Below, one piece after another: positions 2,922-16,040 of a stretch of 64,000 nucleotides of DNA; the first letter of the stretch is position 1; the number at the start of each line of letters is the position of its first letter. This DNA is from Bacteroidales bacterium (lineage in GTDB: Bacteria > Bacteroidota > Bacteroidia > Bacteroidales > P3). Location of the stretch: positions 651 to 64,650 of the forward strand of contig JAKSMQ010000005.1 in assembly GCA_024400565.1 (NCBI GenBank), written 5' to 3'. The notes under the pieces were generated by a model. That model saw nothing but the letters and a program-made list of their open reading frames with translations, made no database searches and was not told the origin of the DNA. The position numbers and the translations under genes are program-made.

Positions 2922-3129
2922 CCCCCAGCCATAGGGTAGGGGACTATCCTCCATGCAACCGGTCTGCTCTGCCAGGGGTAGAAAAGATAAGTTTTTGATA
3001 TTTCTTCCTCCAGAGAGGAATGGTTTAGGCATCACGAAGCACATGTTTACGCCTGATGTGGTTAGTATTAATTAGAAAAGGCGACAGCAATAAAAGCATT
3101 TGTGTGATTTGCAATTGCATGCTCAACTT

Positions 3130-3411
3130 CTAATGCTCTATTGTCTGACCGAATTCTGACGTTGAATTCGTGTCATACAATTTCATCATATTGTAGAGTG
3201 AACGTTTGCTGTAGCCTCTGCGTTTAGGATTATGTCGCTTCAGGTAATCAGCCAATTCACTCACCACATAATCACCCCATTGAGTGTTCTTCAATCGGTC
3301 GGAGATGTAACTACCCACCTCCCCATACGTTTGTAATGTCTTAGCATTCACCTTGGCAATAGCAGTATTGGTGAGTGAGTTAACGTAAGCGAACTCTTGT
3401 TCGTGTTGCAC
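3130..3411 (-). pseudogene. DUF1016/YhcG-family N-terminal fragment (truncated PD-(D/E)xK nuclease-family gene remnant)
   Basis: The 93-aa ORF starts at GTG. The sequence (YGEVGSYISDRL...VSELADYLKRHNPKRRGYSKRSLYNMMKLYD) resembles only the N-terminal helical domain of YhcG-like proteins. The C-terminal nuclease domain is absent. Confidence 0.45.
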
Positions 3412-3500
3412 TTGTAACTAGGATTTAGGCTTTCTTTAGCCGAAAAAAAATATTTTTCCTCGTGCTATTCTTTCTCAAAAGTTGCATTTCTTATTGGAAC

Positions 3501-3962
3501 TTAGGGTAAATTTAGTGAAATATTTTCAAACGACATAGTCCAGTCTTGGCCATCAGTTTCATTAATGTCAGGCAGAAGGTAATCTTCTTTTTCGGGCAGC
3601 TCGGCCAATATAGCCTCGTCCGAAATCTGTAATTTCGCACGAATTCTCTTAAAAAAACTAATCTCGGAATATTCGATATTGTTATCCGCCTCTATTGTAT
3701 CAATGGCCAACTTGACAATTTGTAATTCTGCATGTTCAGAAAGTTGAGCAGCTGAAAGTTCTTTCAGGAATGAAGTTAGAAATTCATTTCCATCTCGTTG
3801 AATGTCTTCCACATATTCGCTAAGTTTGGACGAGATATCCAAGCCTTCAAATACAGCCTGATTTGTTGCAACACTCTTTACTAAGGCCAATTCCTCGTTG
3901 GCGATTTCGCCGTCGCATGCCATGCAGCAAAAGACGGTTTTCAAGAACAGTTCATTATTCAT
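3501..3962 (-). CDS. TerB-like (tellurite-resistance TerB fold) protein, last gene of the Hsp70 operon
   Basis: 153 aa. FCCMACDGEIANEELALVKSV plus a second half LAIDTIEADNNIEYSEISFFKRI fit the two-repeat TerB pattern (A-x-A/C-D-G-x-I-x-x-x-E). The ATG lies 5 nt after the stop of the kinase-AAA gene. Confidence 0.65.
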   Translation of the reverse strand: MNNELFLKTVFCCMACDGEIANEELALVKSVATNQAVFEGLDISSKLSEYVEDIQRDGNEFLTSFLKELSAAQLSEHAELQIVKLAIDTIEADNNIEYSEISFFKRIRAKLQISDEAILAELPEKEDYLLPDINETDGQDWTMSFENISLNLP

Positions 3963-3967
3963 AGTTG

Positions 3968-5746
3968 TTATCTTTTAAATCCAATTGGTTTGCGTTGAGT
4001 AATAGTTTGGTCGGTTTGTTCAATTTCGTTCCGAATAGACTCAAATTTCTTTAACTCTTCGAAAGGTATTGATGGCTTGTTTTTTGATATTGTCTGCAGT
4101 AGCAAGTCCATAGTTATCTTCTCGTCTTTTTCAAAAGCAATTCTAGCGGCCTCATCAACGATGAAATTCATATCGGCAGAGACATAGTTGTCCGTTTTCT
4201 CGGCCAACAAATCATAATCTATACCGAAATCTGTATATCGGTCCCTTAGTGCCAATTCAAAAAGAGCTTTACGTGCATTCTTGTCAGGAGGTCCGATATA
4301 GAACTTCTTTTCCAATCTACCGGAACCCAACATGGCCGGATCTATCATATTAGGATAATTGGTTGCCCCAATAACGAAAACCCCTTTCTCTCCAGTCCTG
4401 TCCATTTGTGCCAACATTTCATTCACAGCACTTTTTGACATTTCGTGGGAATCACTTGATCTATTGGGCAATAATTCATTTATTTCATCTATAAAGATTA
4501 TCGTTGGGGCATTCTCCTCGGCTTCTTTGAACATATTGGCTATGTTCTCTTGCGAAGCATTCACCCATTTACTTTTCAAATCAGCAGGGGTTTTCTGCAT
4601 GAAATTGAAGCCTACCTCCTCTGCCATCTTTTTAGCAAAGAAGGTCTTGCCACAACGTGGAGGACCATAGAGCAACATACCATTGGGCAAAGAAAGCCCG
4701 TAACGCTTCGACTTCTCTGGGTCCTTAATGATTCTGATAATATCCCTTGTTATCAAGTCTTTCAACTCCTGCATACCAGCCACATCAGCAAACCCATTTC
4801 CTTGAGGAATATTCACATTGCTACCTTTAGAAGATTCCTCCTTGTCAATTGGATGAGATGTTGCAATAGGTGACACTTTTATTTCACCCTTTAATGCCTT
4901 GGCAAATTCATCGGCAGACTGGAATCTGTCATCTGGATTATAGGCGAGTGCTTTGGCCATGATGTTTATCAGCTGTTCATCCAGTCCGGACTTTTCTCTG
5001 TCCAAGATTCGCAATGGTCGCTTTCGCTCATTATTGATAGTCTCTACCATAGCCAGCCTATCTCCTTTAAGTTTCGACAGATTGGTATAATATGGAGGTA
5101 GACCAAACAGTAGTTGATACAGCATAGCTCCAACAGAAAAGATGTCACTTTGTGGCGAAAACAAACCATTGAATGCTTCTGGTGCTTGGCAAAATAGGTC
5201 GAGACCATCTTTCTGAAACGAACGATGGTCTTGACTCATAAACCGGGCATAGCCAAAGTCAATGATGATTGGCTTGGCCATTCCTTTTGACATATCAAGC
5301 ATCACATTCTGCGTTGTCAGCTCATTATGAATAATTGGATTCGGCAAAGAATGAAGATACTTCAAACCGTCCAACACACCTAGCACAATTTGTTTGGCAT
5401 CAAACACAGTGCAGTCATTATCTCGTGTTGTTTTCTGCGCTGCGGTTTCGCCACTAATGAAGTCATACACCACATACAACATTCTTTTCCCATCTACCAA
5501 CATTTCACCACTATCTCGATAGTGAAGAACATTGGGATGATTCAGTTGCTCCGACACCTTCAACTCCAAACAATCACCATTCTCATCAAATTGTGTAGGA
5601 TGCAGTTTGTTGTAGGCAATCAACTTCAAGAAACAATTCTTGCCGCAAGGATCTTTAACGCGGTAAGTCTCAGCGTAAGTTCCTTGCTTTATTGGGAAGG
5701 CAACTGTGTATGAAGCAATCTCTTGATTCTTTTGTAGACTATACAT
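3968..5746 (-). CDS. Ser/Thr protein-kinase-like domain fused to a classic-clade AAA+ ATPase
   Basis: The N-terminal half has Hanks-kinase landmarks: FLKLIAY (Lys), IIHNELTTQNVML (catalytic loop, HNE in place of HRD), IIDFGYA (DFG), QAPEAF (APE) and SDIFSVGAMLYQLLFGLPPY. The C-terminal half has Walker A LLYGPPRCGKT, Walker B IIFIDEINEL, sensor-1 VIGATNYP and the second region of homology DPAMLGSGRLEKKFYIGPPD. Confidence 0.8.
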   Translation of the reverse strand: MYSLQKNQEIASYTVAFPIKQGTYAETYRVKDPCGKNCFLKLIAYNKLHPTQFDENGDCLELKVSEQLNHPNVLHYRDSGEMLVDGKRMLYVVYDFISGETAAQKTTRDNDCTVFDAKQIVLGVLDGLKYLHSLPNPIIHNELTTQNVMLDMSKGMAKPIIIDFGYARFMSQDHRSFQKDGLDLFCQAPEAFNGLFSPQSDIFSVGAMLYQLLFGLPPYYTNLSKLKGDRLAMVETINNERKRPLRILDREKSGLDEQLINIMAKALAYNPDDRFQSADEFAKALKGEIKVSPIATSHPIDKEESSKGSNVNIPQGNGFADVAGMQELKDLITRDIIRIIKDPEKSKRYGLSLPNGMLLYGPPRCGKTFFAKKMAEEVGFNFMQKTPADLKSKWVNASQENIANMFKEAEENAPTIIFIDEINELLPNRSSDSHEMSKSAVNEMLAQMDRTGEKGVFVIGATNYPNMIDPAMLGSGRLEKKFYIGPPDKNARKALFELALRDRYTDFGIDYDLLAEKTDNYVSADMNFIVDEAARIAFEKDEKITMDLLLQTISKNKPSIPFEELKKFESIRNEIEQTDQTITQRKPIGFKR

Positions 5747-5760
5747 AGCAGAGTGACAAA

Positions 5761-8304
5761 TTACAGGTAGTGAAACTTAGATTTTTGGATTTTCGTCTTT
5801 TCGTCTTCAGGTACATCTAGCAGGTCGATGACTCGTGCACACACCTGGCGGATAGATTCGGGGTCGGCATTATCATTGATCATCTGCTGAGCCTGATTGA
5901 GTAACTGTCTAGCCGTGGCAGCATCAGTCCATTTGTATCGACCAAAGTTATTATTATAGTGTTCTACAAAGGCAACTAGCTGATAAATAATTGTGACTTG
6001 GAAAAAGAGATGACCCATATCTCGCAGAACCTCTCTGCCCAATTTGGGATCTTTCTTTCGCACAGCCTCGTCAACTTGGCGGTGCATTTCGCGAACTTCA
6101 TTGTCGTATTCATTCCCCAAATCATTATTTGCAGTTTCCAGTCGCTCATATTCACTTCTGAGTTCGGCTTCTATCGATTCCCATTCGTGCATTTTCTCCA
6201 CCTCTTCCATTTTGCGGAAAGCTGTGCGAAGGTCTTTCATCAAATGGTCTTTGCCATCATCCTGTGATTTCTCACCTTCAAAACGACCAGAAACATCAGA
6301 TAGAATCTTTTCCACCTCCAATAGCTCGCTCTGCGGGATAGCCTTGCTGGATTTCAACGAACGCAATCTTCTATTAGCGTCCTGCATTCGCTGGGATAGA
6401 AGTTCTTCAGATACAGCCTGTTTGACGGAAATGGTCACTTCTTTCTCAACGGTTTCGCCACATGACACAAAGAACACCTCTAAATTGTAGTTCTGAGAGC
6501 TGTCCACCTTTAATGTCACATCAATATCGCTACCTTCTGGAATCAACATTGGCACATCATCGCCAGTAATCACAACATCATAGACATGATTGTTGTGGAT
6601 TGCGCTTGAGCCCTCAGCGCTATATTCGCCTTGATAGATGGGAATAACCATTCTATCCTGCTCCATACCAGGGCGTAAATTCTTGGGTACTTTCAATCCA
6701 TTACGGACACCTGTAGCTGGCAATTGCTGGTTTTTTTCCAAACCCTTCATCTGGACAAACACATCTCTATCTAAATCTGTATCACGAACCTCAATTCCAA
6801 TATGGTAAGGCAAGGTGGCATTGCCTACTTTCGTGCCTTGAATAATCGTTATTTCATTAGGAAAACACTGGATGGAATTACCTGTTCCGTCATATCCCTT
6901 TATAGCAAAAGCATTGGCTCTGCCTTCGTTAAGTCGACATTCTATAACATCGCCAATCTCATTCACCTCTACTTTGCCGCTGGACCAGCCCTTGTCGCTC
7001 CTTACCAGTTCTACAAATAGTTGCGACGGCATTGTGCCGACACACTCATTCGGCAATAGTTTTACTGTGACAAACTCCAAGGATTCCACACTATTGGCTT
7101 CATACTGGATATCAAGTGCCATAACCGAAGATATAGTATCAGTAGCACTAATAACTGGGCCTTCGGTATCAATACTCTGTGTAGCTGCAAATAATGCGGC
7201 GCCCTTGGCCACTGCCGTCATGGGGTCGATGCTGGTGTCCACGTTTGGCGTCACCTGGTCTTTCAGCATTTGGCGCAAAACAGGCGAGAAAGTCGGACCA
7301 CCAACTAGTATCAAACTATCCAACTTGCTGCCCGACAAATTGTTTCGCCTCAACAATTCAAGACACTTGTCAATTGCCTTCTGGAAGATAGGGGCTACAA
7401 CCTTGGCAATCTCCTCTTGCGAAATCACCATATCCAACTCGATAGCCTCACCCTCATCATCCTCGCCAAACTCGTCAATCTGAGACATGATATCGCATTG
7501 GGGTTTGAAGGAAAGCTGATTCTTGGCCTGCTCGGCATAATACTTCATGGCATCGCGCAAAATCTCACGTTTACGACTATCAGCCATTATATCATCTATG
7601 GTATAGTTGTCTTTCAAATAAGGAATGATTATCTGATCGACTATGGAATAGTCAAGGTTCTTGCCACCCAGATAGTTGTCGCCTTCAGTGTCAATCACCT
7701 TCATGATGCCATCTTCCACTTTCAATAGGGCTGCGTCGAAAGTACCGCCACCAAAGTCGAACACCATCCAATATCCGTCTTTCTTGTCTGTGCTCAAGCC
7801 GTATGCCATCGAAGCCGCAATGGGTTCTTGCAACAATTCGCAGTACTCAATACCCGCCATAGTAGCAGCACGTTTGGTGGCAGCAATCTGAGTGGCATCA
7901 AACATAGCAGGAATAGTAATAACAGCTGTATTGATGGTGTCGTCTGTAACAAACGACTTCAAAGTTTTAAGGACTTCTGAAGACAGGTCTTCTGACGAAT
8001 AGCTTCTGTCCATATTAGAACTATGGTATTGGGTGGCCAAACCCATAGTACGCTTAAACTCAATGAAAACATTTGTGGCCTCATTTGTCCATTTTTTTGT
8101 ACTTCGACTTCTGTCTGTTCTTAAGTCATTATATGCACCATCTCCGACTTTGACAATTTTCCTTTTTGAAAAGGAAACACAAGAGGGAAGAGTATCTTTT
8201 AAGGTGTCAGTTTTCTTAATAATGGGTTCTCCATTTTCCATCTTGCAGATGGCGGAATTGGTTGTACCCAAATCAATTCCGTATTTCATCTTTATTTGAG
8301 CCAT
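5761..8304 (-). CDS. divergent Hsp70/DnaK-family ATPase (847 aa) with extra inserted domain and long helical tail
   Basis: NBD motifs are GIDLGTTNS, VITIPAMF, LLQEPIAASMAYG, DFGGGTFD, DNYLGGKNLD, LILVGGPTFSPVLRQ and DPMTAVAKGAALFA. An SBD-beta-like segment follows (LPYHIGIEV...IPIYQGE...VVITGDDVP...IDVTLKVD), then about 220 aa of charged helical sequence. An alternative ATG lies at 8289. Confidence 0.85.
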   Translation of the reverse strand: MAQIKMKYGIDLGTTNSAICKMENGEPIIKKTDTLKDTLPSCVSFSKRKIVKVGDGAYNDLRTDRSRSTKKWTNEATNVFIEFKRTMGLATQYHSSNMDRSYSSEDLSSEVLKTLKSFVTDDTINTAVITIPAMFDATQIAATKRAATMAGIEYCELLQEPIAASMAYGLSTDKKDGYWMVFDFGGGTFDAALLKVEDGIMKVIDTEGDNYLGGKNLDYSIVDQIIIPYLKDNYTIDDIMADSRKREILRDAMKYYAEQAKNQLSFKPQCDIMSQIDEFGEDDEGEAIELDMVISQEEIAKVVAPIFQKAIDKCLELLRRNNLSGSKLDSLILVGGPTFSPVLRQMLKDQVTPNVDTSIDPMTAVAKGAALFAATQSIDTEGPVISATDTISSVMALDIQYEANSVESLEFVTVKLLPNECVGTMPSQLFVELVRSDKGWSSGKVEVNEIGDVIECRLNEGRANAFAIKGYDGTGNSIQCFPNEITIIQGTKVGNATLPYHIGIEVRDTDLDRDVFVQMKGLEKNQQLPATGVRNGLKVPKNLRPGMEQDRMVIPIYQGEYSAEGSSAIHNNHVYDVVITGDDVPMLIPEGSDIDVTLKVDSSQNYNLEVFFVSCGETVEKEVTISVKQAVSEELLSQRMQDANRRLRSLKSSKAIPQSELLEVEKILSDVSGRFEGEKSQDDGKDHLMKDLRTAFRKMEEVEKMHEWESIEAELRSEYERLETANNDLGNEYDNEVREMHRQVDEAVRKKDPKLGREVLRDMGHLFFQVTIIYQLVAFVEHYNNNFGRYKWTDAATARQLLNQAQQMINDNADPESIRQVCARVIDLLDVPEDEKTKIQKSKFHYL

Positions 8305-8316
8305 ATTGAGAAGTGT

Positions 8317-9174
8317 TTAGTTTTGACTTACTGTGATTTGCGCAGATTGGATCATTACTCCGTTATAATTAATCTGCGGTTTTGTGATACCTGTGATGAT
8401 TTGCTGACCCGGTTCCAAGTTCTCGTCTTCAACAAAATTAGCAACAACTTTCATTCCTTCATGATAAGGCTTTCCAAGCATATCAACAATCTCATATCCA
8501 TTGGCCAGCAGGTTACTTTTCATCTGATCAATTGATTTGGACAGTTGTTTATAACCTTTTACAGTTTTATCCATACGGTATAACGTGACTTCCATAAAAG
8601 CAATTCTGTCAGCAAGAGTCTTGATAAGGTCTGTCATGTCTTCAGACGACACATTACTTGAAGGAGCCGATGCTGCGGTGGCTATCTTCTGCAACTCTGA
8701 TAGTTCTGTATTCAGCTTTGTTACAACTTGTTCATTCAACTTATCGGCTTTCTCTTTGAGTTCGGTAATCTCATTTGTTCCATAGAGGATTCGTTTGCGC
8801 AAAACCACAAAGACTACAACAACCATAACCAATAGTGCCGCAATCAGAATAGCACCCAATATACTTTTGGATTTAATATTCTGTTCGTTGCTTGATACGG
8901 CAGTTTCAGTTGTTTTGATTTTCACACCTAAAGAATCAGCAATGACCTTTACATTGCTTGCATTCTTTTGAATGGCTTCATCTTGTTTGAGGTTAGCACT
9001 CAAAAGGTTGGCATTAGCGGAAGCAAGCGAATCATACTGTGTCTTCAAAGATTGCATTTGGAGCTCCAACGAGACCACCCTCTTATTCAACATAGATAAA
9101 CTATCTTGCTGAGCATAACTGATGAAAGTTATGGCAAGAAATAAGAATGGTAAAAATAATTTAATAAGTTTCAT
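8317..9174 (-). CDS. bitopic membrane protein with coiled coils and C-terminal GrpE-like domain
   Basis: The ATG at 9174 gives a signal-like N-terminus MKLIKLFLPFLFLAITFISYAQQ; the track start at 9222 is TTG. One internal TM is ILGAILIAALLVMVVVVFVVLRKR. The C-terminus NGYEIVDMLGKPYHEGMKVVANFVEDENLEPGQQIITGITKPQINYNGVMIQSAQITV follows the GrpE beta-domain pattern (compare E. coli [55 protein letters not shown]). Confidence 0.6.
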   Translation of the reverse strand: MKLIKLFLPFLFLAITFISYAQQDSLSMLNKRVVSLELQMQSLKTQYDSLASANANLLSANLKQDEAIQKNASNVKVIADSLGVKIKTTETAVSSNEQNIKSKSILGAILIAALLVMVVVVFVVLRKRILYGTNEITELKEKADKLNEQVVTKLNTELSELQKIATAASAPSSNVSSEDMTDLIKTLADRIAFMEVTLYRMDKTVKGYKQLSKSIDQMKSNLLANGYEIVDMLGKPYHEGMKVVANFVEDENLEPGQQIITGITKPQINYNGVMIQSAQITVSQN

Positions 9175-9184
9175 ATCGATTATT

Positions 9185-10669
9185 TTAATTACATGTTGCA
9201 ATACAAAATCCAATAATTCCAAATATTACATATATTATTATTTGAACAATACTGCCGCCATATTCGTCCCAAAAAACTCTGAAGCGACTTGTTGGAATAC
9301 CAATTTGACTACACAATTTTTTCAATGTTCTACGATTAGTATTGTATCTTTCTTTGAGGGCGGCATCCATGTCAAATTTGTCCATTAATAATGTGGCATC
9401 CCAGGCGTCTTTGAATGAGCGTCTTATAATAAATATCCTCATACTTCCCAAAGATGAATATTCCTTTTGTACCGCATTAATCTCCTCAATTACATTGTGT
9501 AATGCATTGTTCACCACCTTGGAAGACAAATTCAGATAGTAACTGTTAGTTACACCCAATTTCGCCTTCATTGCTTGCAGTTTCGGCTTGGTATTGTTTA
9601 ACAATGTAACTGAGTGCTCAATCTTGTCGGGTTTTTTACAAAAATCCTTTAACTCTTTGAATATGGCAATAGCTTCCTGCTCGACACCAGCAGGGGGCAG
9701 ATTTTTTTCTTTTTTGGCTAATGTTTCAACAGCCTGTTCGCAGCGGTCTTTGGTGATTTTTCCGACTGCTACTTTTGTGGCATACTCGGCCAGTTTCTTT
9801 GCGTTTAGTACATACTCTCTACTTTCATCACTATTATTGAAATAGTTAATGCTACATTGAAGAATCTGATTTGCCAACTTATCTGCCAATCGTTGATAAT
9901 CAACATCATTTGCACCGACCAACGCAATTAATCGAAGACGAATCCTATGAGTAGAATTACTTAACTCCTTGCCAGCCTCCTCCCATAATTTTGATTCATC
10001 ACCTTTGGTTGCTCTTGCCTTAGATATTGCATTCTCTATGATTTCGAACCGCTTCTGTATGGAATATTTTCGAATATTTTCTACCACCCAAAAATCAATA
10101 GAATTTCCGACATTTTGAAAAACATCGAATGCGTCTATCTCTTCAAAGACTTTGGAGAAGAATGTCTCTGCAAGTTCTTCTTTGGAGATTTGAATTGTAT
10201 CACCCGCAACAGCATTGACAAATCCAGTACGCATATCATCATTCTGAATCATCTTGCCCATGCAAGTTATTGCCGCAATATTCTCACCCGCAATAAACGC
10301 CAATACGCTTCGATTGACTAGTGCAGCGAATGTGTCTCGTTTGGAGAAAAGCTCTAAGGCTTTCTCCTCGTCACCCTTAACAAGATACTCCCATGCCATT
10401 GCTCCAACTGAATCTTCTGGTTTGATGAACCAAAACAAGGCATGAGTCAACTTGCCCTGAGGCAAGTTGATATTTGCTGTTGCTTGTCCAACCGACGCTG
10501 TATCTCGTTCTAACGAAGGCTGCCCACCAACACAATCAAGTGGGAAAGAAACGGTTTTGCTTGCTGCCAAATATGCCTTCAGCTTAGATTGATTGGCCGC
10601 AATTTCTTTGGCACTAGCGTTAGTGGGTACGCCTAATATTCTAAAAGGATTATTGCTAATAATATTCAT
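9185..10669 (-). CDS. tail-anchored J-domain-like protein (no HPD motif), first gene of the Hsp70 operon
   Basis: The N-terminus NPFRILGVPTNASAKEIAANQSKLKAYL matches J-domain helices I-II (YYxILGVxxxASxxEIKxAYRKLA), but the HPD position reads AAS. A long helical middle follows, then a C-terminal hydrophobic anchor IVQIIIYVIFGIIGFCIATCN. Confidence 0.55.
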   Translation of the reverse strand: MNIISNNPFRILGVPTNASAKEIAANQSKLKAYLAASKTVSFPLDCVGGQPSLERDTASVGQATANINLPQGKLTHALFWFIKPEDSVGAMAWEYLVKGDEEKALELFSKRDTFAALVNRSVLAFIAGENIAAITCMGKMIQNDDMRTGFVNAVAGDTIQISKEELAETFFSKVFEEIDAFDVFQNVGNSIDFWVVENIRKYSIQKRFEIIENAISKARATKGDESKLWEEAGKELSNSTHRIRLRLIALVGANDVDYQRLADKLANQILQCSINYFNNSDESREYVLNAKKLAEYATKVAVGKITKDRCEQAVETLAKKEKNLPPAGVEQEAIAIFKELKDFCKKPDKIEHSVTLLNNTKPKLQAMKAKLGVTNSYYLNLSSKVVNNALHNVIEEINAVQKEYSSLGSMRIFIIRRSFKDAWDATLLMDKFDMDAALKERYNTNRRTLKKLCSQIGIPTSRFRVFWDEYGGSIVQIIIYVIFGIIGFCIATCN

Positions 10670-10725
10670 TGTTTAAGTCTTCTTGCTAAAGGACATAAAA
10701 AAAGAACCGCGAACTTTTTGTTCAG

Positions 10726-10831
10726 CCCGAGGTCCTAGGATAACCTACACTACAAACAAGAAAGCCCACGGTATTACCGCGAGCGATTCTCCTTTCTTGT
10801 GTAGTGTACTTGAAATTTCCTAGGTTTCGGG
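10726..10831. repeat. long imperfect inverted repeat (about 106-nt nested hairpin) in the leader of the Hsp70 operon
   Basis: The outer arms CCCGA..TCCTAGGA (10726-10740) pair with TCCTAGG..TCGGG (10818-10831). The inner arms TACACTAC-AA-ACAAGAAAG (10746-10764) pair with CTTTCTTGT-GTAGTGTA (10792-10808). The 27-nt loop contains a small CGG/CCG stem. Confidence 0.6.
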
Positions 10832-10941
10832 TACTGCAAAGAAAAGCGAAAACGCTTTTTTATATGTTATATTTAATTATTTTCTTTCTATTTTATTGTT
10901 TTATAATGTTTTATTGTTGATTAGTATTCTTTTTCAGTTTG

Positions 10942-10949
10942 CAAATATA
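10942..10949 (-). promoter_or_regulatory. candidate Bacteroidetes -7 box (TATATTTG) for the Hsp70 operon
   Basis: The reverse complement of CAAATATA is TATATTTG, matching TAnnTTTG. It lies about 270 nt upstream of the ATG at 10669. A possible -33 TTTG at 10978-10975 sits at non-ideal spacing. Confidence 0.4.
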
Positions 10950-11082
10950 CAAAGATTTTGGAAATTAGTGGTAACAAAATGCTTGAGGACAGGTATTTTT
11001 ATGATACAATAGGGTATCAAGAAGAAATTGGTTTTTATACATCAAATATGTGATGGCTCAACCACAATCATTCTTATGTGCT

Positions 11083-11739
11083 TTATATTACAATCCCGTT
11101 CTCCTTGAGTATTTGCTCGAGATGCTCTATGCGGTCGCGCAAGGCTGCATTCTCGTTTCGAAGCATTTCTATCTGTTGTTTCTGGTTGCTACGATAGCCC
11201 AGTCTGGCCGCTGTCATCCTTTCGCGTATGCCTCCCTCTTCTACAAATTTCCGTTCTAGCTGTTCCTGGTAGGAGGTCATCAGCTTGTCGGTGATATGGC
11301 AGAGGGTAAGCGCCACATTGGCCATCTCCACATCGTCCCACACTTCGAAGTATTGTTCATAGTCCTCCACCTTGTTGTGGACGCGGCAATATTCGAGCAT
11401 AGAACGATAGCGAGGATGCCCCTCGGTCCAAACGGGCAGCTGCCGAGCACCAAGGTAGTCCTGGTAGTCTTCGCGCAGTTCCTTGAGACTTCCGCGGGCA
11501 CAATTGAGCAGTTTTACCTCCATCTCCATACTGGTCACACCATCGGCAGCCCCCTCTACAATATTTTGCTTGCCCGATCGAGCCGCTTGCACCATCTGGT
11601 CAACAGTTCGGTCGCCCTTGCGAAGGAATCGCTCGGTGAACCGATAGGTGAGCATATACAGCGTGTTGGCCTTCTGGTAGAAGTACAGTTCTTCCCAGTG
11701 GGTCTGCTTGCGCAAGAAGGTGGGGTGAGGCGTTGGCAT
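11083..11739 (-). CDS. four-helix-bundle protein (23S rRNA intervening-sequence protein / Avd-like family) with C-terminal coiled-coil extension
   Basis: LYFYQKANTLYMLTYRFTERF...QMVQAARSGKQNIVEGAA is typical of the four-helix-bundle family common in Bacteroidota. A leucine-zipper-like tail QIEMLRNENAALRDRIEHLEQILKE follows. ATG start. Confidence 0.7.
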   Translation of the reverse strand: MPTPHPTFLRKQTHWEELYFYQKANTLYMLTYRFTERFLRKGDRTVDQMVQAARSGKQNIVEGAADGVTSMEMEVKLLNCARGSLKELREDYQDYLGARQLPVWTEGHPRYRSMLEYCRVHNKVEDYEQYFEVWDDVEMANVALTLCHITDKLMTSYQEQLERKFVEEGGIRERMTAARLGYRSNQKQQIEMLRNENAALRDRIEHLEQILKENGIVI

Positions 11740-11768
11740 GATTTTTTTTATTTTTTGGTTTTTTTTGA

Positions 11769-11925
11769 GGGGGGGGATTTTCTAGGGGGGGGGGGCTAGG
11801 ATTTTCTAGGGATTCCTAGGATTTCTAGGGTTTCTAGGGATTCCTAGGGTGGGGGACTATGGGGATGGAATTTCTTGGGGGCTTGGGATTTTGGGATTCT
11901 TGTATTCTTGTGTTCTACCTTGGTT
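11769..11925. repeat. degenerate ~10-bp tandem repeat (ATTYCTAGGG) with G8 and G11 homopolymer tracts
   Basis: CTAGG occurs at 11782, 11796, 11806, 11816, 11825, 11834 and 11844 (spacings 14, 10, 10, 9, 9, 10). G8 is at 11769-11776 and G11 at 11785-11795. The array decays into TTCTTGGGG / TTTTGGGA / TTCTTGT variants up to about 11925. T8/T6/T8 tracts at 11742-11766 precede it. Confidence 0.8.
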
Positions 11926-12027
11926 ATTTTCTTTTTTGTTGTCTCTTGTTGGCATGTGTTTGGTCTATTGATAGCTATAACGTCAAAAGAACCATTTTAT
12001 TATTCTACGTTGGATATATATGAAAAG

Positions 12028-12049
12028 CCCCAGGAGGTATTCCCTGGGG
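12028..12049 (-). terminator. hairpin terminator downstream of the 506-aa gene
   Basis: CCCCAGG (12028-12034) pairs with CCTGGGG (12043-12049). On the minus strand the stem is followed by CTTTTCA. It lies about 40 nt after the stop at 12090. Confidence 0.45.
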
Positions 12050-12089
12050 TTTCAATCTTTCTGGGGCTTCATTTTTCCTCTATGCGAGG

Positions 12090-13610
12090 TTATGCAATGC
12101 ATTTAACCTTGCTGAAGGTGGTTACGATTTGCTCAATCTCCACGGGAATGCTTGTACCCTTGTGGCCCTGGGTGATGGCATCGTAGTATTTTTTCTGGTC
12201 GGCTTTCTTGCATTGAAAGATCTCATAGTGAGAGAGCTCGTCCCTTATCCCGGACTGACGGCAGGTCAGTATCTGAACAGCCTCGGATGAGAGATAGCCC
12301 GCCAGCACCAGAAGAGGACGGATGTTGACCTGAATGCCTTGCACCGAGACGCAGATATGTCGGCTGCCCGGATGGAAAACGCTATCCCATAATTTCGAGC
12401 TTTGTCGGGTTGTAATCTGCGTGCCGGCAAGGAGACGGGAAACGACTTCATTGACCTTCCAGATGGCCAGACTGTCATCGCCACACAGATGGATCATGGC
12501 CTCTTTGAAAACAGCAGTGATTTGCTGCTTGACAGCTGTGTGCTGGCTTTCGCTCAGGGCGAAGAGAGGCTGGTATTCGAAACCTTGAAAAGTGTGGTGG
12601 GAGTTGTAATACTCCAGGAGACGCTCTTTGATGATGTAATTGAAAAATGGTTGAATATCATACTTGATACCCGTTTCATCATCATTTGAAGCGAAACAGC
12701 TCCTGACTAACGATACCGCCAATTCGTCACCGGGAAGTCCATCCTCGTCGATGGTTCGGAAATATTCCTTTCCCGAAGGTGTGGCGCTAAAGGCGTGGTA
12801 TATCTGCGCGTGGACGCGTTGCAGCATATCGGTTGCGAACTTGAACTCCTCCATTGAGACACGCAGCTCGCGTTTGATACCCTCGACACTCGACTCATAA
12901 TAGTCCAAATAAGTTTTGTTGAGTGCACGTTTGCATGCGCCCGAATCATTGATGGTTTCCTTTAACTTTCCCAACGATCGCTGCAGCTTCTGCTTGTAGT
13001 CGGTTAATTTTTCGACCAGGAAGGGCAGGAGCGTGCATTCCTCCTTAAAGATGTAGTGGAATGCTTCGTCGAGCAGATCTTTAATCCTGACAGAAATATC
13101 AAGTTTGGAGAATTTCTCTTTCATGTTCTGAAAGATGCCCCGCACAATATTGTAATAGACATCGAAAGTATCGGAATTGAGTCGGTGGGCCTTCTTGATG
13201 CTACTGATATCAGAGAGCCCGTGTTCATCGCAGAATTTATCTATATCGTTCAGGAAGGAGGGTATCTGATTCAACAGATTTGCACCTTCCTGATTCAATT
13301 TTTCAAGATGTCCATTGACAAGCGTCAGAGCCTCATCCGCTGCCTGATCTGTCTCCCGTGTAAGAGATAAAAGCATCTCGCCAATAGGGTCGGGCTTAAA
13401 CTCGTTTAACTTGACGCTGAATGACTCTCTTGAAATCTCACAGCAGGAATGCGAGATTCCAGGATCGATCTCGAAAAGATTGAGCCAGATTGCCGGGCTG
13501 AAGCCGGAAAGGCTGCCTTTGTAAAATTTTTCTTCAGACTCTTCCTGAATCGGAAGGTTCATTACCTCGTAAATGTGCTCTATCACACTATATTCCAAAT
13601 GATTGATCAT
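12090..13610 (-). CDS. hypothetical protein (506 aa, predicted all-helical, no recognised family)
   Basis: Long uninterrupted ORF. The track start at 13646 is TTG and lies inside the predicted promoter. The ATG at 13610 (MINHLEYSVIEHIYEV) sits about 20 nt downstream of the predicted TSS. Confidence 0.6.
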   Translation of the reverse strand: MINHLEYSVIEHIYEVMNLPIQEESEEKFYKGSLSGFSPAIWLNLFEIDPGISHSCCEISRESFSVKLNEFKPDPIGEMLLSLTRETDQAADEALTLVNGHLEKLNQEGANLLNQIPSFLNDIDKFCDEHGLSDISSIKKAHRLNSDTFDVYYNIVRGIFQNMKEKFSKLDISVRIKDLLDEAFHYIFKEECTLLPFLVEKLTDYKQKLQRSLGKLKETINDSGACKRALNKTYLDYYESSVEGIKRELRVSMEEFKFATDMLQRVHAQIYHAFSATPSGKEYFRTIDEDGLPGDELAVSLVRSCFASNDDETGIKYDIQPFFNYIIKERLLEYYNSHHTFQGFEYQPLFALSESQHTAVKQQITAVFKEAMIHLCGDDSLAIWKVNEVVSRLLAGTQITTRQSSKLWDSVFHPGSRHICVSVQGIQVNIRPLLVLAGYLSSEAVQILTCRQSGIRDELSHYEIFQCKKADQKKYYDAITQGHKGTSIPVEIEQIVTTFSKVKCIA

Positions 13611-13635
13611 AATATAAATTGTTAAAAATTTGGTG

Positions 13636-13643
13636 CAAAGATA
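13636..13643 (-). promoter_or_regulatory. candidate -7 box (TATCTTTG) for the 506-aa gene
   Basis: The reverse complement of CAAAGATA is TATCTTTG, matching TAnnTTTG. It lies 26-33 nt upstream of the ATG at 13610. Confidence 0.5.
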
Positions 13644-13833
13644 CAAGTAAATTATGATAATGCAAGCATATTTATTGAAATTGTCAATAACTATTAGTAG
13701 AATTGTAAGAAATGAGTGTGCTTGAACGGATTTATATATCGGACAGTCAGTATGTTAGATTGCATATTGAAATGTTGTTCGGACCACGATGGCTTAATTT
13801 CTATGCCGACGTGGCGATGTGGGACGAAATTAT

Positions 13834-13873
13834 CTGGAAAACAGCTGGAAAACGAGTACAAAATCTGGAAAAC
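13834..13873 (+). repeat. three direct copies of CTGGAAAAC
   Basis: Copies lie at 13834-13842, 13845-13853 and 13865-13873 (spacing 11 and 20 nt). They sit about 75-110 nt upstream of a plus-strand -7 box. Confidence 0.7.
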
Positions 13874-13946
13874 AGGAGTTATATCGCTGATATACAATGG
13901 TGGAAAAAGAACAGAAGGAACAGAATCTTTCCATAAAAAAAGGTTG

Positions 13947-13954
13947 TATATTTG
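13947..13954 (+). promoter_or_regulatory. candidate -7 box (TATATTTG), plus strand
   Basis: Exact TAnnTTTG match in the 675-bp ORF-poor spacer. It would give a leader of about 360 nt, containing the 11-bp repeat array, ahead of the ATG at 14322. Confidence 0.4.
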
Positions 13955-14107
13955 CAAAATGAAAAAACGATGAGATAAGTTTTTTCGGTCGCAGTTCCCC
14001 GATGGAATAGGGTTGAGCGGACAGATGGTTAAACAAAAAAAATATCGAATAAAAAACAAAGATCCAACAAAAGAATGAGAGGTAGAAATGGAGAAGAAAA
14101 AGGGGTT

Positions 14108-14262
14108 GACTACAAAAGTGGCTGTTTTGACTACAAAAGTACTACAAAAACACTACAAAAACACTACAGAATCTCTACAAAAACACTATTTCGACTCTGA
14201 ATCGACTCTACAATATCTCTACAAAATCACTATATCGTCTCTACAATGTCTCTACAAAACCA
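14108..14262 (+). repeat. array of CTACAA(A/T) motifs in strict 11-bp register (phased A-tracts)
   Basis: CTACA starts at 14110, 14131, 14142, 14153, 14164, 14175, 14208, 14219, 14241 and 14252. From 14131 to 14252 every spacing is a multiple of 11. TCGACTCT is also duplicated 11 nt apart (14191, 14202). Confidence 0.85.
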
Positions 14263-14321
14263 GACACAAGCAATTCCGCCCTCGAGGAGGGCACAAGTTT
14301 AACAATTAAATTTTTATCAAC

Positions 14322-14978
14322 ATGGCAAAATTATCAGCAAAATTCGGACCAATACACGGAAATGACGGTAACACCGCTTACCGCACAATCAACGGAACCA
14401 CGTTCCAAAACTACATTGACACCGCAGCGCCCAAGAAGGAGCGTACCCCGCGTCAGAAGACCTATGGGGCATTGCTGAAGGTGATGAACAGGTATACGTA
14501 CATTCATTACCCGGATCTGACGGCATTCTTTCCCAAAGGCAATAAACGATCCTCCCGTCATGCATTCCTTGCACATAACAGGGAGAGCCTTGCCGCAGCC
14601 TTGTATTCTCTGGCAGAGCGTAGTGCAAACGGAGAGAAAATCACAGACCAGCAGATTGAGGATGCAGTCAGCACCTATGCACAGGCCAATCCCCGCAGCA
14701 TTGTGGTGGGACTGAGGAAAGGTTATCTGCCTATATACCTTGAGGGTGAATGGCCTTCAAAGTTCAGATTCCTGCTGTACGACCAGGCAGTCACCCCTGC
14801 CGAGTTTCAGACGGCAGACGGCACGTTTGTGCAGGAAGAGGGAGATGCTGACGCCAATGGCGGAACCACAGGCAATGGTGGAGATGCCAACTCGGGTCAG
14901 GGAGGCACTTCCCAGTCTCAGACTGGTGGCACCTCTAATCCTGGTGGCGGTTCCTCTGGCGGCTACGACGGCGACTAG
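14322..14978 (+). CDS. hypothetical protein with Gly/Ser/Thr-rich low-complexity C-terminal tail
   Basis: 218-aa ORF with an ATG start and a terminator hairpin downstream. The C-terminus is GDADANGGTTGNGGDANSGQGGTSQSQTGGTSNPGGGSSGGYDGD. No family confidently recognised. Confidence 0.55.
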   Translation: MAKLSAKFGPIHGNDGNTAYRTINGTTFQNYIDTAAPKKERTPRQKTYGALLKVMNRYTYIHYPDLTAFFPKGNKRSSRHAFLAHNRESLAAALYSLAERSANGEKITDQQIEDAVSTYAQANPRSIVVGLRKGYLPIYLEGEWPSKFRFLLYDQAVTPAEFQTADGTFVQEEGDADANGGTTGNGGDANSGQGGTSQSQTGGTSNPGGGSSGGYDGD

Positions 14979-15019
14979 GCTGATGAGCAGCGGGCTACAG
15001 CCTGATGCTGACGGGAAAC

Positions 15020-15052
15020 GGGCGGTCGGAAGGCCGCCCTTTTGCTTTTGTT
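15020..15052 (+). terminator. rho-independent terminator
   Basis: GGGCGG (15020-15025) pairs with CCGCCC (15034-15039), followed by TTTTGCTTTTGTT. Confidence 0.65.
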
Positions 15053-15149
15053 GCGTGACGGGGGAGGGGAGAGGGGATGCCTTCGGCTCAGGAGATAAAC
15101 GGACAGAGATGCTCCGTCCCTATGCTCTGCTGAAAAGGATGCAGACTAT

Positions 15150-16040
15150 TTAAGGATTGGGATGCTGCAGGTTGCGCTGCCATTGGGCGTGTTTTATCCT
15201 GTTGATGGCAGAATGGCGGGTGCGCCGGCGGAACTCTGTGGGGTCTGTCGCGGAGAGTGTCTCCAGCTCGCGGATTCTCTGGTCGGATATCTCTACTGTG
15301 GGGGGCACGTCTTTGTTGTACGGACACACCATCTGGCAGCAGTCGCAGCCGAAGCTGTAGCCATTCAGGGTGAGGTCGACGGGCAGTTGGGGGGCACGGT
15401 TCTCGATGGTGTTGTAGGAGATGCATCGGCGGCAATCGAGTCCTTTCTCGTCGAGGGCGTGGTTGGGACAGGCCTTGAGGCAGAGCGTACAGTCGTGGCA
15501 ACGGCTCTCTATGGGGCTGTCGTAGCGGTCGAACGCGGAGGTGGTGACCAACTCGGCCACATGACAATAGCTGCCATAGGTGGGGTTGACGAGCAGGGTG
15601 TGCTTTCCTATCCATCCCAATCCGGCCTGGGCAGCCCACAGCTTGTCGCTGATGGGGACTGTGTCGACGCAGGGCTTGGCCTCGAAGGTGGGGTGGCTTT
15701 CGCGTATGAGGGCTATCAGACGGAAGAGCATCTGCCTGATGCGCTCGTGGTAGTCGTCGCCATAGGCATACTGGGCTATGCGATGGGGACCTTGCATGGT
15801 CTGCGATGGCTTGTAGCCCAACAGGAGGCAAATGACGGATTGGGCTCCTTCGACCAGCAGCCGGGGGTCGCTCCGCATCTCGACGTGCTTTTCCATAAAC
15901 TGCATGTCGCCCTGGCGCCCCAGGCTGAGCCACGTTCTGAACCGCGCTTCAAAGCCCTCCAGCTGTGTGGCACGGGCTATGCCGCAGCCGTGAAAACCTA
16001 CGGAGCGGGCTATTGTCTTGATTTGGGCTGAGGAGAGCAT
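15150..16040 (-). CDS. queG: epoxyqueuosine reductase
   Basis: Ferredoxin-type Cys motifs are CHDCTLCLKACP and CRRCISYNT...CDCCQMVCP, together with the conserved GLGWIGKHTLLVNP. Start set at the internal ATG at 16040 (MLSSAQIKTIA), because the 86-aa Arg/Gln-rich N-terminal extension of the ORF overlaps the upstream gene. Confidence 0.85.
   Translation of the reverse strand: MLSSAQIKTIARSVGFHGCGIARATQLEGFEARFRTWLSLGRQGDMQFMEKHVEMRSDPRLLVEGAQSVICLLLGYKPSQTMQGPHRIAQYAYGDDYHERIRQMLFRLIALIRESHPTFEAKPCVDTVPISDKLWAAQAGLGWIGKHTLLVNPTYGSYCHVAELVTTSAFDRYDSPIESRCHDCTLCLKACPNHALDEKGLDCRRCISYNTIENRAPQLPVDLTLNGYSFGCDCCQMVCPYNKDVPPTVEISDQRIRELETLSATDPTEFRRRTRHSAINRIKHAQWQRNLQHPNP

Follow-up and report, generated by a model that had tools for sequence, protein, structure and literature searches.

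The closest described counterpart of the repeat array considered here is BrickBuilt of Porphyromonas gingivalis, a species-specific intergenic MITE (miniature inverted-repeat transposable element) built from a leader, 23-nt units arrayed without spacers and a tail with inverted ends, and for which bidirectional promoter activity was demonstrated (Klein et al. 2015, PMC4596501). The array under study, the core of what we call the CTACAAA element, lies in a 64-kb stretch of a Bacteroidales genome (the window, that is, the whole stretch analysed, to whose positions all coordinates on contig C45 refer), upstream of a gene that starts at 14322 and encodes a 218-amino-acid (aa) protein. Like BrickBuilt, it is found in the Bacteroidales, is species-restricted, strictly intergenic and multi-copy, opens with a leader, after which short imperfect units follow one another in tandem without spacers, stands at a distance of tens to hundreds of nucleotides from the neighbouring genes and contains promoter-like words. 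It differs in the size of its unit (11 nt instead of 23), in the number of units (fixed at 14 or 18, against 1 to 22.8), in the length of its leader (about 25 nt, against up to 285 nt) and in its copy number (six, against 19). In addition, the CTACAAA element has neither a tail nor terminal inverted repeats, and no sequence similarity between the two is evident.

A second comparison is offered by long simple sequence repeats with units of 5-11 nt (Mrazek et al. 2007, as summarised in PMC4679880) and by the heptamer arrays of Beggiatoaceae and cyanobacteria. They resemble the arrays described here in being abundant, mostly intergenic, built of short units, sporadic in their phylogenetic spread and without known function. 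The window array, being intergenic, tandem, longer than chance would produce and made of 11-nt units, falls within this description. Heptamers dominate in those genomes, whereas here periods of 11 nt and its multiples make up 45% of all tandem-repeat loci and involve many unrelated units. Tandem direct repeats of about one helical turn are also found in iterons and in parC, the centromere of plasmid R1, whose 11-bp direct repeats are bound by ParR. The CTACAAA element shares this layout, but it is chromosomal and present in six copies, no par or rep gene is adjacent to it and no promoter lies between two repeat clusters. A-tracts phased with the helical repeat give intrinsically curved DNA, and the array, which carries A4-A5 tracts at each helical turn over about 150 bp, is in this respect like the kinetoplast-type bends and the curved DNA upstream of promoters. 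Unlike curved promoter DNA, it is dispersed in six copies, three of which lie upstream and one downstream of a promoter box, and is no fixed element of a promoter. Since its phasing is 11.0 bp and not 10.5 bp, the bend should be superhelical rather than planar. Finally, the element differs from titrating RNAs of the CsrB/RsmZ type in lacking a promoter and a terminator of its own that would define a discrete transcript.

The reading that we favour, with a probability of about 0.6, is that the window array represents one instance of a lineage-specific, non-coding repeat block that is dispersed, fixed and intrinsically curved and belongs to a genus-wide class of 11-nt arrays. The genome that holds the window (G000) is a 1.89-Mb Bacteroidales metagenome-assembled genome (MAG), 72% complete. 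A pattern search, together with a BLAST search of the spacer against its own genome, revealed six copies of the block, on contigs C45 (the window), C32, C9, C55, C31 and C18, the five others being 82-95% identical to the window copy by BLAST. The pattern search detected no further CTACAA cluster elsewhere in this genome, and no inverted one anywhere in it. The element measures about 180 nt and consists of a purine-rich leader followed by 14 degenerate 11-nt units, or by 18 in a second subfamily. Taken together, the copies are 80-98% identical. No indel interrupts the alignment of the four 14-unit copies over 154 nt (133 to 151 positions of 154 identical) or that of the two 18-unit copies over 198 nt (191/198, 96%), the number of units being constant within each subfamily. 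When the copies were aligned with 400 nt of flanking DNA on either side, similarity was found to start about 25 nt ahead of the first unit and to end at CTCTACAAAAC; outside these sharp borders, the flanks could not be aligned. Nor do the copies share any flanking protein within 6 kb: their neighbours are rsfS-ftsH, a membrane protein gene, a short-chain dehydrogenase (SDR) gene, a DNA-methylase-like gene and the 218-aa gene. Unrelated flanks and unrelated neighbours at six copies indicate that the array is a dispersed element and not a device of gene 14322. A multi-copy, non-coding, intergenic block with sharp borders and unrelated flanks is also what is expected of a MITE. A reading made from the letters of this DNA alone (hereafter the sequence-only reading) had considered a regulatory region dedicated to gene 14322; this specificity is lost, given that five more copies stand beside unrelated genes, three of them upstream of the promoter boxes of those genes. 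Among arrays of at least 60 nt, the CTACAAA family alone recurs as a whole block, flanks included, at three other loci.

The copies bear traces of exchange with one another. The first 77 nt of the window copy match the C9 copy at 72 of 77 positions, whereas its last 77 nt match C9 at only 62 positions and the C31 copy, which is of the 18-unit type, at 73. Together with the indel-free alignments of entire blocks, this mosaicism points to copying of the block as a whole followed by exchange of parts among the copies. The differences between copies fall on the CTACAA core as often as on the spacer positions (12/72 and 11/60, respectively; p = 0.82), as drift predicts, and thus do not suggest selection on a binding core.

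At the window locus itself, the array sits in a spacer of 675 nt between the listed open reading frames (ORFs), the same ORF-poor spacer that the sequence-only reading had delimited. All the CTACA words listed in that reading are present, with starts at 14110, 14131, 14142, 14153, 14164, 14175, 14208, 14219, 14241 and 14252; the nine from 14131 on occupy a single 11-nt register and the one at 14110 is one base off. Runs of three CTACA words at 11-nt spacing number 3 in the window, against 0.00 expected from 100 dinucleotide-preserving shuffles. Counted backwards from the sharp 3' end, the array is composed of head-to-tail units with the consensus cACTACAAAAw, in which CT at unit positions 3-4 is invariant throughout units 3-14. 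Tandem Repeats Finder (TRF) returned a period of 11 nt, with 44 nt as a higher order. Most CTACA words had been said to be followed by A3-A5, which is true of 7 of the 10, and a word had been said to be duplicated 11 nt apart within the register, which is the case of TCGACTCT, at 14191 and 14202. The ORF at 14088-14309 (73 aa) was discarded as a gene: it matched no Pfam family and had one weak PHROG match (E 0.0029), and its frame or its ATG is lost in the other copies. The idea of a coding remnant was likewise abandoned, the 11-nt period being unreadable in frame and the ATG of ORF 14088 being missing or frame-shifted in the other copies.

The block appears to be confined to this lineage. An exact 23-mer common to the six copies had no match in the genome, viral or metagenome contig collections. 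Looser periodic patterns retrieved many unrelated 11-nt arrays, from all phyla, with no full-length relative of the element among them, and a three-unit CTACAA pattern, run against 142 other genomes of the genus, hit only short arrays made of other units. Rfam gave no match at E<=1.

Data from other samples show that the copies are stable. In k141 contigs that span the C18 (rsfS) and C32 copies, the number of units is unchanged, being equal in four or five assemblies at C18 and in two at C32; the window locus was not spanned. Such constancy is that of a fixed, stable element and not of a variable-number repeat. Five other samples yielded contigs on which the 218-aa protein is encoded, in identical form or with 91% identity, and all of them begin with the last ~31 nt of the array. 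From there to the start codon (the 31-nt array end and the next 60 nt) they are identical to the window. A contig break inside the array suggests a repeat, so that those strains, too, probably have the array, and in several copies. Short-read unitig assemblies from many samples also end inside the CTACAAA element (Logan contigs L278-L282 and L288-L293). The element is thus a systematic assembly breakpoint in the species, and its being a dispersed repeat explains why short-read assemblies break exactly there.

From the recurrence of A-tracts at 11-bp intervals, strong curvature of the block is predicted. AAA periodicity peaks at 11 nt, and tracts of at least four A stay in phase over several turns. 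In a dinucleotide wedge model, whose output is indicative only, the ratio of end-to-end distance to contour length, computed over 150-nt windows, falls to 0.42 at the array, whereas the median for the window is 0.96 and the 0.1 percentile 0.56. The twelve most curved 150-nt windows of the 64 kb all overlap the array. The modelling therefore sides with the sequence-only reading, which had proposed phased A-tracts and curved DNA here. The same model places the CTACAAA family among the most curved arrays of the genome. Curvature was also considered as a trait of the whole class of arrays with a period of 11 nt or a multiple of it (11n arrays) and was rejected as such, the class being no more curved than random intergenic DNA (p = 0.18); curvature thus belongs to this A-tract family.

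These observations can be accommodated in a simple scenario. The block would first have grown by duplication of units and would then have been copied as a whole to six intergenic sites, after which the copies may have swapped halves by recombination or gene conversion. With no transposase, inverted ends or target duplication in evidence, it probably spread by host recombination or through an enzyme acting in trans. At the window locus, where it would lie in the leader of gene 14322, the element is probably transcribed as an unstructured A/C-rich RNA. Where it lies upstream of the neighbour's promoter box, at three other loci, it could act only as curved upstream DNA. Effects on neighbouring genes would then be a by-product of the landing site and not the reason for the existence of the element.

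Several facts weigh against this view. None of the six copies is associated with terminal inverted repeats, a target-site duplication or a nearby transposase; the ends of the element are direct, with TGACTACAAAAG or a purine-rich leader on the 5' side and TCTCTACAAAAC on the 3' side. No presence/absence polymorphism was seen, all the strains examined carrying the copies that were looked at, so that the case for mobility comes from the dispersed copies only. In the sister species G005, the region upstream of rsfS has no array, but synteny on the 5' side is lost there and the comparison with an empty site is not a clean one. The copies also vary less between strains than the intergenic DNA nearby: variable sites amount to 1/196 in the element at C18, against 32/600 upstream, and to 2/154 at C32, against 15/600 upstream and 21/100 just downstream. 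This low diversity could have arisen because a function is under selection or because the copies homogenise one another. Of the six copies, five are oriented towards the next gene, a bias that hints at a function and is not significant. Finally, in G005 the leaders of the homologous genes carry other 11-nt arrays, which could mean that an array is needed at that place and not merely tolerated.

Some of these same facts would be expected if the block were a platform on which a protein polymerises, be it a nucleoid-associated protein, a regulator or a ribbon-helix-helix protein like ParR, by binding 14 sites one helical turn apart, in which case the six arrays would make up a small regulon or serve as sites that organise the chromosome. 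The low variation of the copies relative to the flanking spacer, the orientation of five of six towards the downstream gene, the location of three of them 100-290 nt upstream of a -7 box, the invariant CT, the strict 11-bp phasing without indels in the four 14-unit copies and the precedent of the ParR-bound repeats of parC all speak for such a platform. Nevertheless, the differences between paralogous copies do not spare the core, no candidate binding protein is encoded beside any copy, the downstream genes (rsfS-ftsH, membrane protein, SDR, 218-aa gene) are functionally unrelated and the position of the copies relative to promoters is inconsistent. Moreover, the 11-nt period is common to dozens of unrelated units and is therefore not dictated by the binding site of one protein. 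On balance, a platform of this kind seems to us unlikely, though less so than the alternatives that follow.

Features of the spacer and of the gene downstream, in window coordinates
Feature	Positions	Strand	Basis
Three CTGGAAAAC words, spacings 11 and 20 nt	13834..13873	+	80-115 nt upstream of the -7 box
Small palindrome TATATCGCTGATATA	13880..13894		Sequence
TATATTTG, likely promoter of gene 14322	13947..13954	+	Sole TAnnTTTG on the + strand of the spacer
Conserved leader segment	13958..14035	+	DNA 76-78% identical to it precedes three homologous loci of the sister species G005
Purine-rich leader of the element, AAATGGAGAAGAAAAAGGGG-like, ~25 nt	14084..14106	+	Inter-copy BLAST similarity begins here; looser likeness among the four 14-unit copies
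Tandem array of 14 x 11-nt units, core of the dispersed element	14107..14260	+	TRF, shuffles, alignment of copies
TACTTTTG, Bacteroidetes -7-box-like word, candidate promoter	14134..14141	-	Equal position in 4/4 14-unit copies; absent from both 18-unit copies
Hairpin GCCCTC-GAG-GAGGGC, between array and start codon	14278..14292	+	Outside the dispersed element; identical in five other samples
218-aa gene, Gly/Ser/Thr-rich tail	14322..14978	+	Small paralogous family

Upstream of the element, the spacer contains the -7 box that the sequence-only reading had pointed out, at the position it gave. The box lies 139 nt ahead of the element and, together with the next ~80 nt, is conserved in G005 upstream of three homologues of the 218-aa gene. 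The counterparts of the segment that follows it are found at L256:1088-1165, L263:2320-2392 (minus strand) and L277:1558-1630 of that species. This segment is predicted to fold into two hairpins, with 3 compensatory pairs in what are effectively 2 independent sequences, and it matched no Rfam family; it may represent an undescribed structured leader of the 218-aa gene family. Transcription starting at about 13961 would probably place the array in a 5' leader of some 360 nt, and transcription of the array from the 13947 promoter, as had been suggested, is plausible, to judge from the uniqueness of the box on that strand of the spacer and from its conservation with the leader. At the equivalent position of the leader, G005 has other 11-nt arrays, made of GGTAGACTTCT (nine units) and TATCCTTGCTA (three units), located in L256 (G005:C119:9514-9620) and L263 (G005:C164:2848-2880). 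These families recur at three or two other loci of G005 that have no gene of the 218-aa type, a situation that parallels the one in G000.

An array located in a leader raises the possibility of a role at the RNA level, in which an A/C-rich, unstructured RNA that bears about 10 CUACAAA motifs, made here from the 13947 promoter and elsewhere by read-through or from other promoters, would sequester an RNA-binding protein or tune the translation of the downstream gene. The conserved promoter box and leader are consistent with this, and so is the presence of 11-nt arrays in the homologous leaders of G005. The sense RNA has no significant predicted structure (z = -0.48), which would leave the motifs accessible; the antisense RNA has none either. 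However, the element contains no sense TAnnTTTG box and the flanks are not conserved between copies, so that it has no promoter or terminator of its own to define a transcript, and the copies on C32, C55 and C18 precede their neighbour's -7 box by 100-290 nt. As the position of the promoter differs from copy to copy, there is no consistent regulatory geometry. In addition, the GGTAGACTTCT and TATCCTTGCTA arrays of the G005 leaders are unrelated in sequence to the CTACAAA units, no RNA motif being conserved among them, and no Rfam family was matched. We consider a function of this sort rather improbable.

Two further explanations can be given little credit. One is an origin of the iteron type, a partition site or the remnant of a transfer origin, left by the mobile element that delivered the accessory island at 2925-15150; the sequence-only reading had envisaged the remnant of a replication or transfer origin. 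Helix-phased direct repeats lie near the right edge of this AT-rich island, and the Hsp70-like ATPase of the island matches, weakly, the phage 'partition protein' family phrog_691 (E 3.7e-07). The Hsp70/actin fold accounts for this match (Pfam HSP70, E 1.2e-65), and the proposal is not supported: the six copies are chromosomal and stand beside unrelated, partly housekeeping genes, Pfam and PHROG scans of 20 neighbouring ORFs revealed no Rep, ParA/ParM/ParR/ParB, relaxase or integrase, a scan of viral contigs gave no match (the plasmid collection was not searched), and no second array is found at the other edge of the island. A phase-variable (contingency) repeat, in which the gain or loss of units would switch gene 14322, is hardly credible either, even though a short tandem repeat does sit between promoter and start codon, since its degenerate, non-identical units disfavour slippage, the number of units does not differ among the four 14-unit copies or between strains at C18 and C32, and the 31-nt array end and the following 60 nt are identical in five samples at the window locus.

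Preferring the dispersed block to these alternatives leaves the local features of the spacer to be described for themselves. The word reported to occur three times upstream is CTGGAAAAC, and its copies at 13834, 13845 and 13865 are the only three of the window, all within 40 nt, where 0.51 would be expected window-wide. Of the 17 occurrences in the genome, these form the only cluster. The cluster could be an operator or activator site of the 218-aa gene, or a micro-array. The small palindrome next to it exists, one base away from where it had been placed.

In the 218-aa protein, the N-terminal domain is conserved (HGNDGN.AYRTING ... MNR ... HY ... RHAF). The protein belongs to a small family, with 3 matches in G000, two of which are paralogues (C24:8-364 and C6:39041-39601), and 8 in G005. 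It matched no Pfam or NCBIfam family and has only 5 database relatives, one of which (P0003) ends in a PF18998 domain. Its AlphaFold model has a mean predicted local distance difference test (pLDDT) score of 61 and found no fold match in the PDB at E<=0.001. The paralogue on C6 has no array upstream, and since arrays fill many long spacers anyway, a link between the gene family and the arrays is unproven.

The result at this locus is a deflationary one, and in annotation the array should be marked as a dispersed repeat; it is neither an origin nor a switch, nor does it serve gene 14322 as a dedicated operator. The interesting part is the wider class to which it belongs. Over the whole of G000, TRF reported 461 tandem-repeat loci, 208 of which (45%) have a period of 11, 22, 33 or 44 nt (120, 63, 21 and 4 loci, respectively), against 18 with a period of 10 and 36 with a period of 12. 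Among these 208 loci, 175 are intergenic (about 84%, with a crude ORF mask), against only two or three such loci in a Markov-shuffled genome. At least one 11n array is present in 57 of the 119 spacers of 500 nt or more and in 32 of the 126 spacers of 300-499 nt, and in 21 pairs a forward array is followed within 150 nt by its reverse complement. The units are drawn from many unrelated vocabularies, for instance TAGCGTCCAC, AGACAGCATAT and ATAATTCATGG. The commonest period is again 11, with other units, in two further species of the genus, G005 and G109, from which 200-kb samples were taken. We found no description of 11-nt or 11-bp repeats in Prevotella or Bacteroidales in the literature searched, and the filling of long gaps between genes with tandem repeats of exactly 11 bases is apparently an undescribed genome-wide habit.

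A rule of length without a rule of sequence points to a physical ruler, for which the DNA helix, a protein that forms filaments and an intermediate of repair are candidates. Taken to its end, this idea supposes that the genus owns a 'one helical turn' ruler, a protein or repair process that makes, copies and perhaps reads 11-bp arrays whatever their sequence. The CTACAAA block would then be a mobile curved module kept by selection, and leaders of the 218-aa type would each carry an array family that marks other chromosomal sites, which is what is observed both in G000 and in G005. We hold this to be speculative and would not expect it to be right; a cultured relative would make it testable, and for such tests the CTACAAA block, with its six defined sites and its predicted strong bend, would be a convenient handle. 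Genes for four-helix-bundle proteins (23S rRNA IVP) were considered as possible 'readers' of the arrays and rejected, only two copies being found in the genome.

Examples of 11n loci in G000 are C14:10871-10973, C55:28164-28263, C23:25380-26160 and C54:12180-12880. A composite of about 800 nt, made of several different 11-nt arrays, is present on C23 and, inverted, on C54. Inverted pairs of 11-nt arrays of the GCCTACATAAA type, spanning about 500 nt, were also encountered in rumen Prevotella MAGs (L040:5950-6420, L048:3170-3660 and L097:3700-4220). An outer GCCTACATGCCTACATAAAA word marks each of their ends and two AATTCTCTAGAGAATT palindromes their centre; judged by this layout, they look like MITE-like elements with arrayed subterminal sites.

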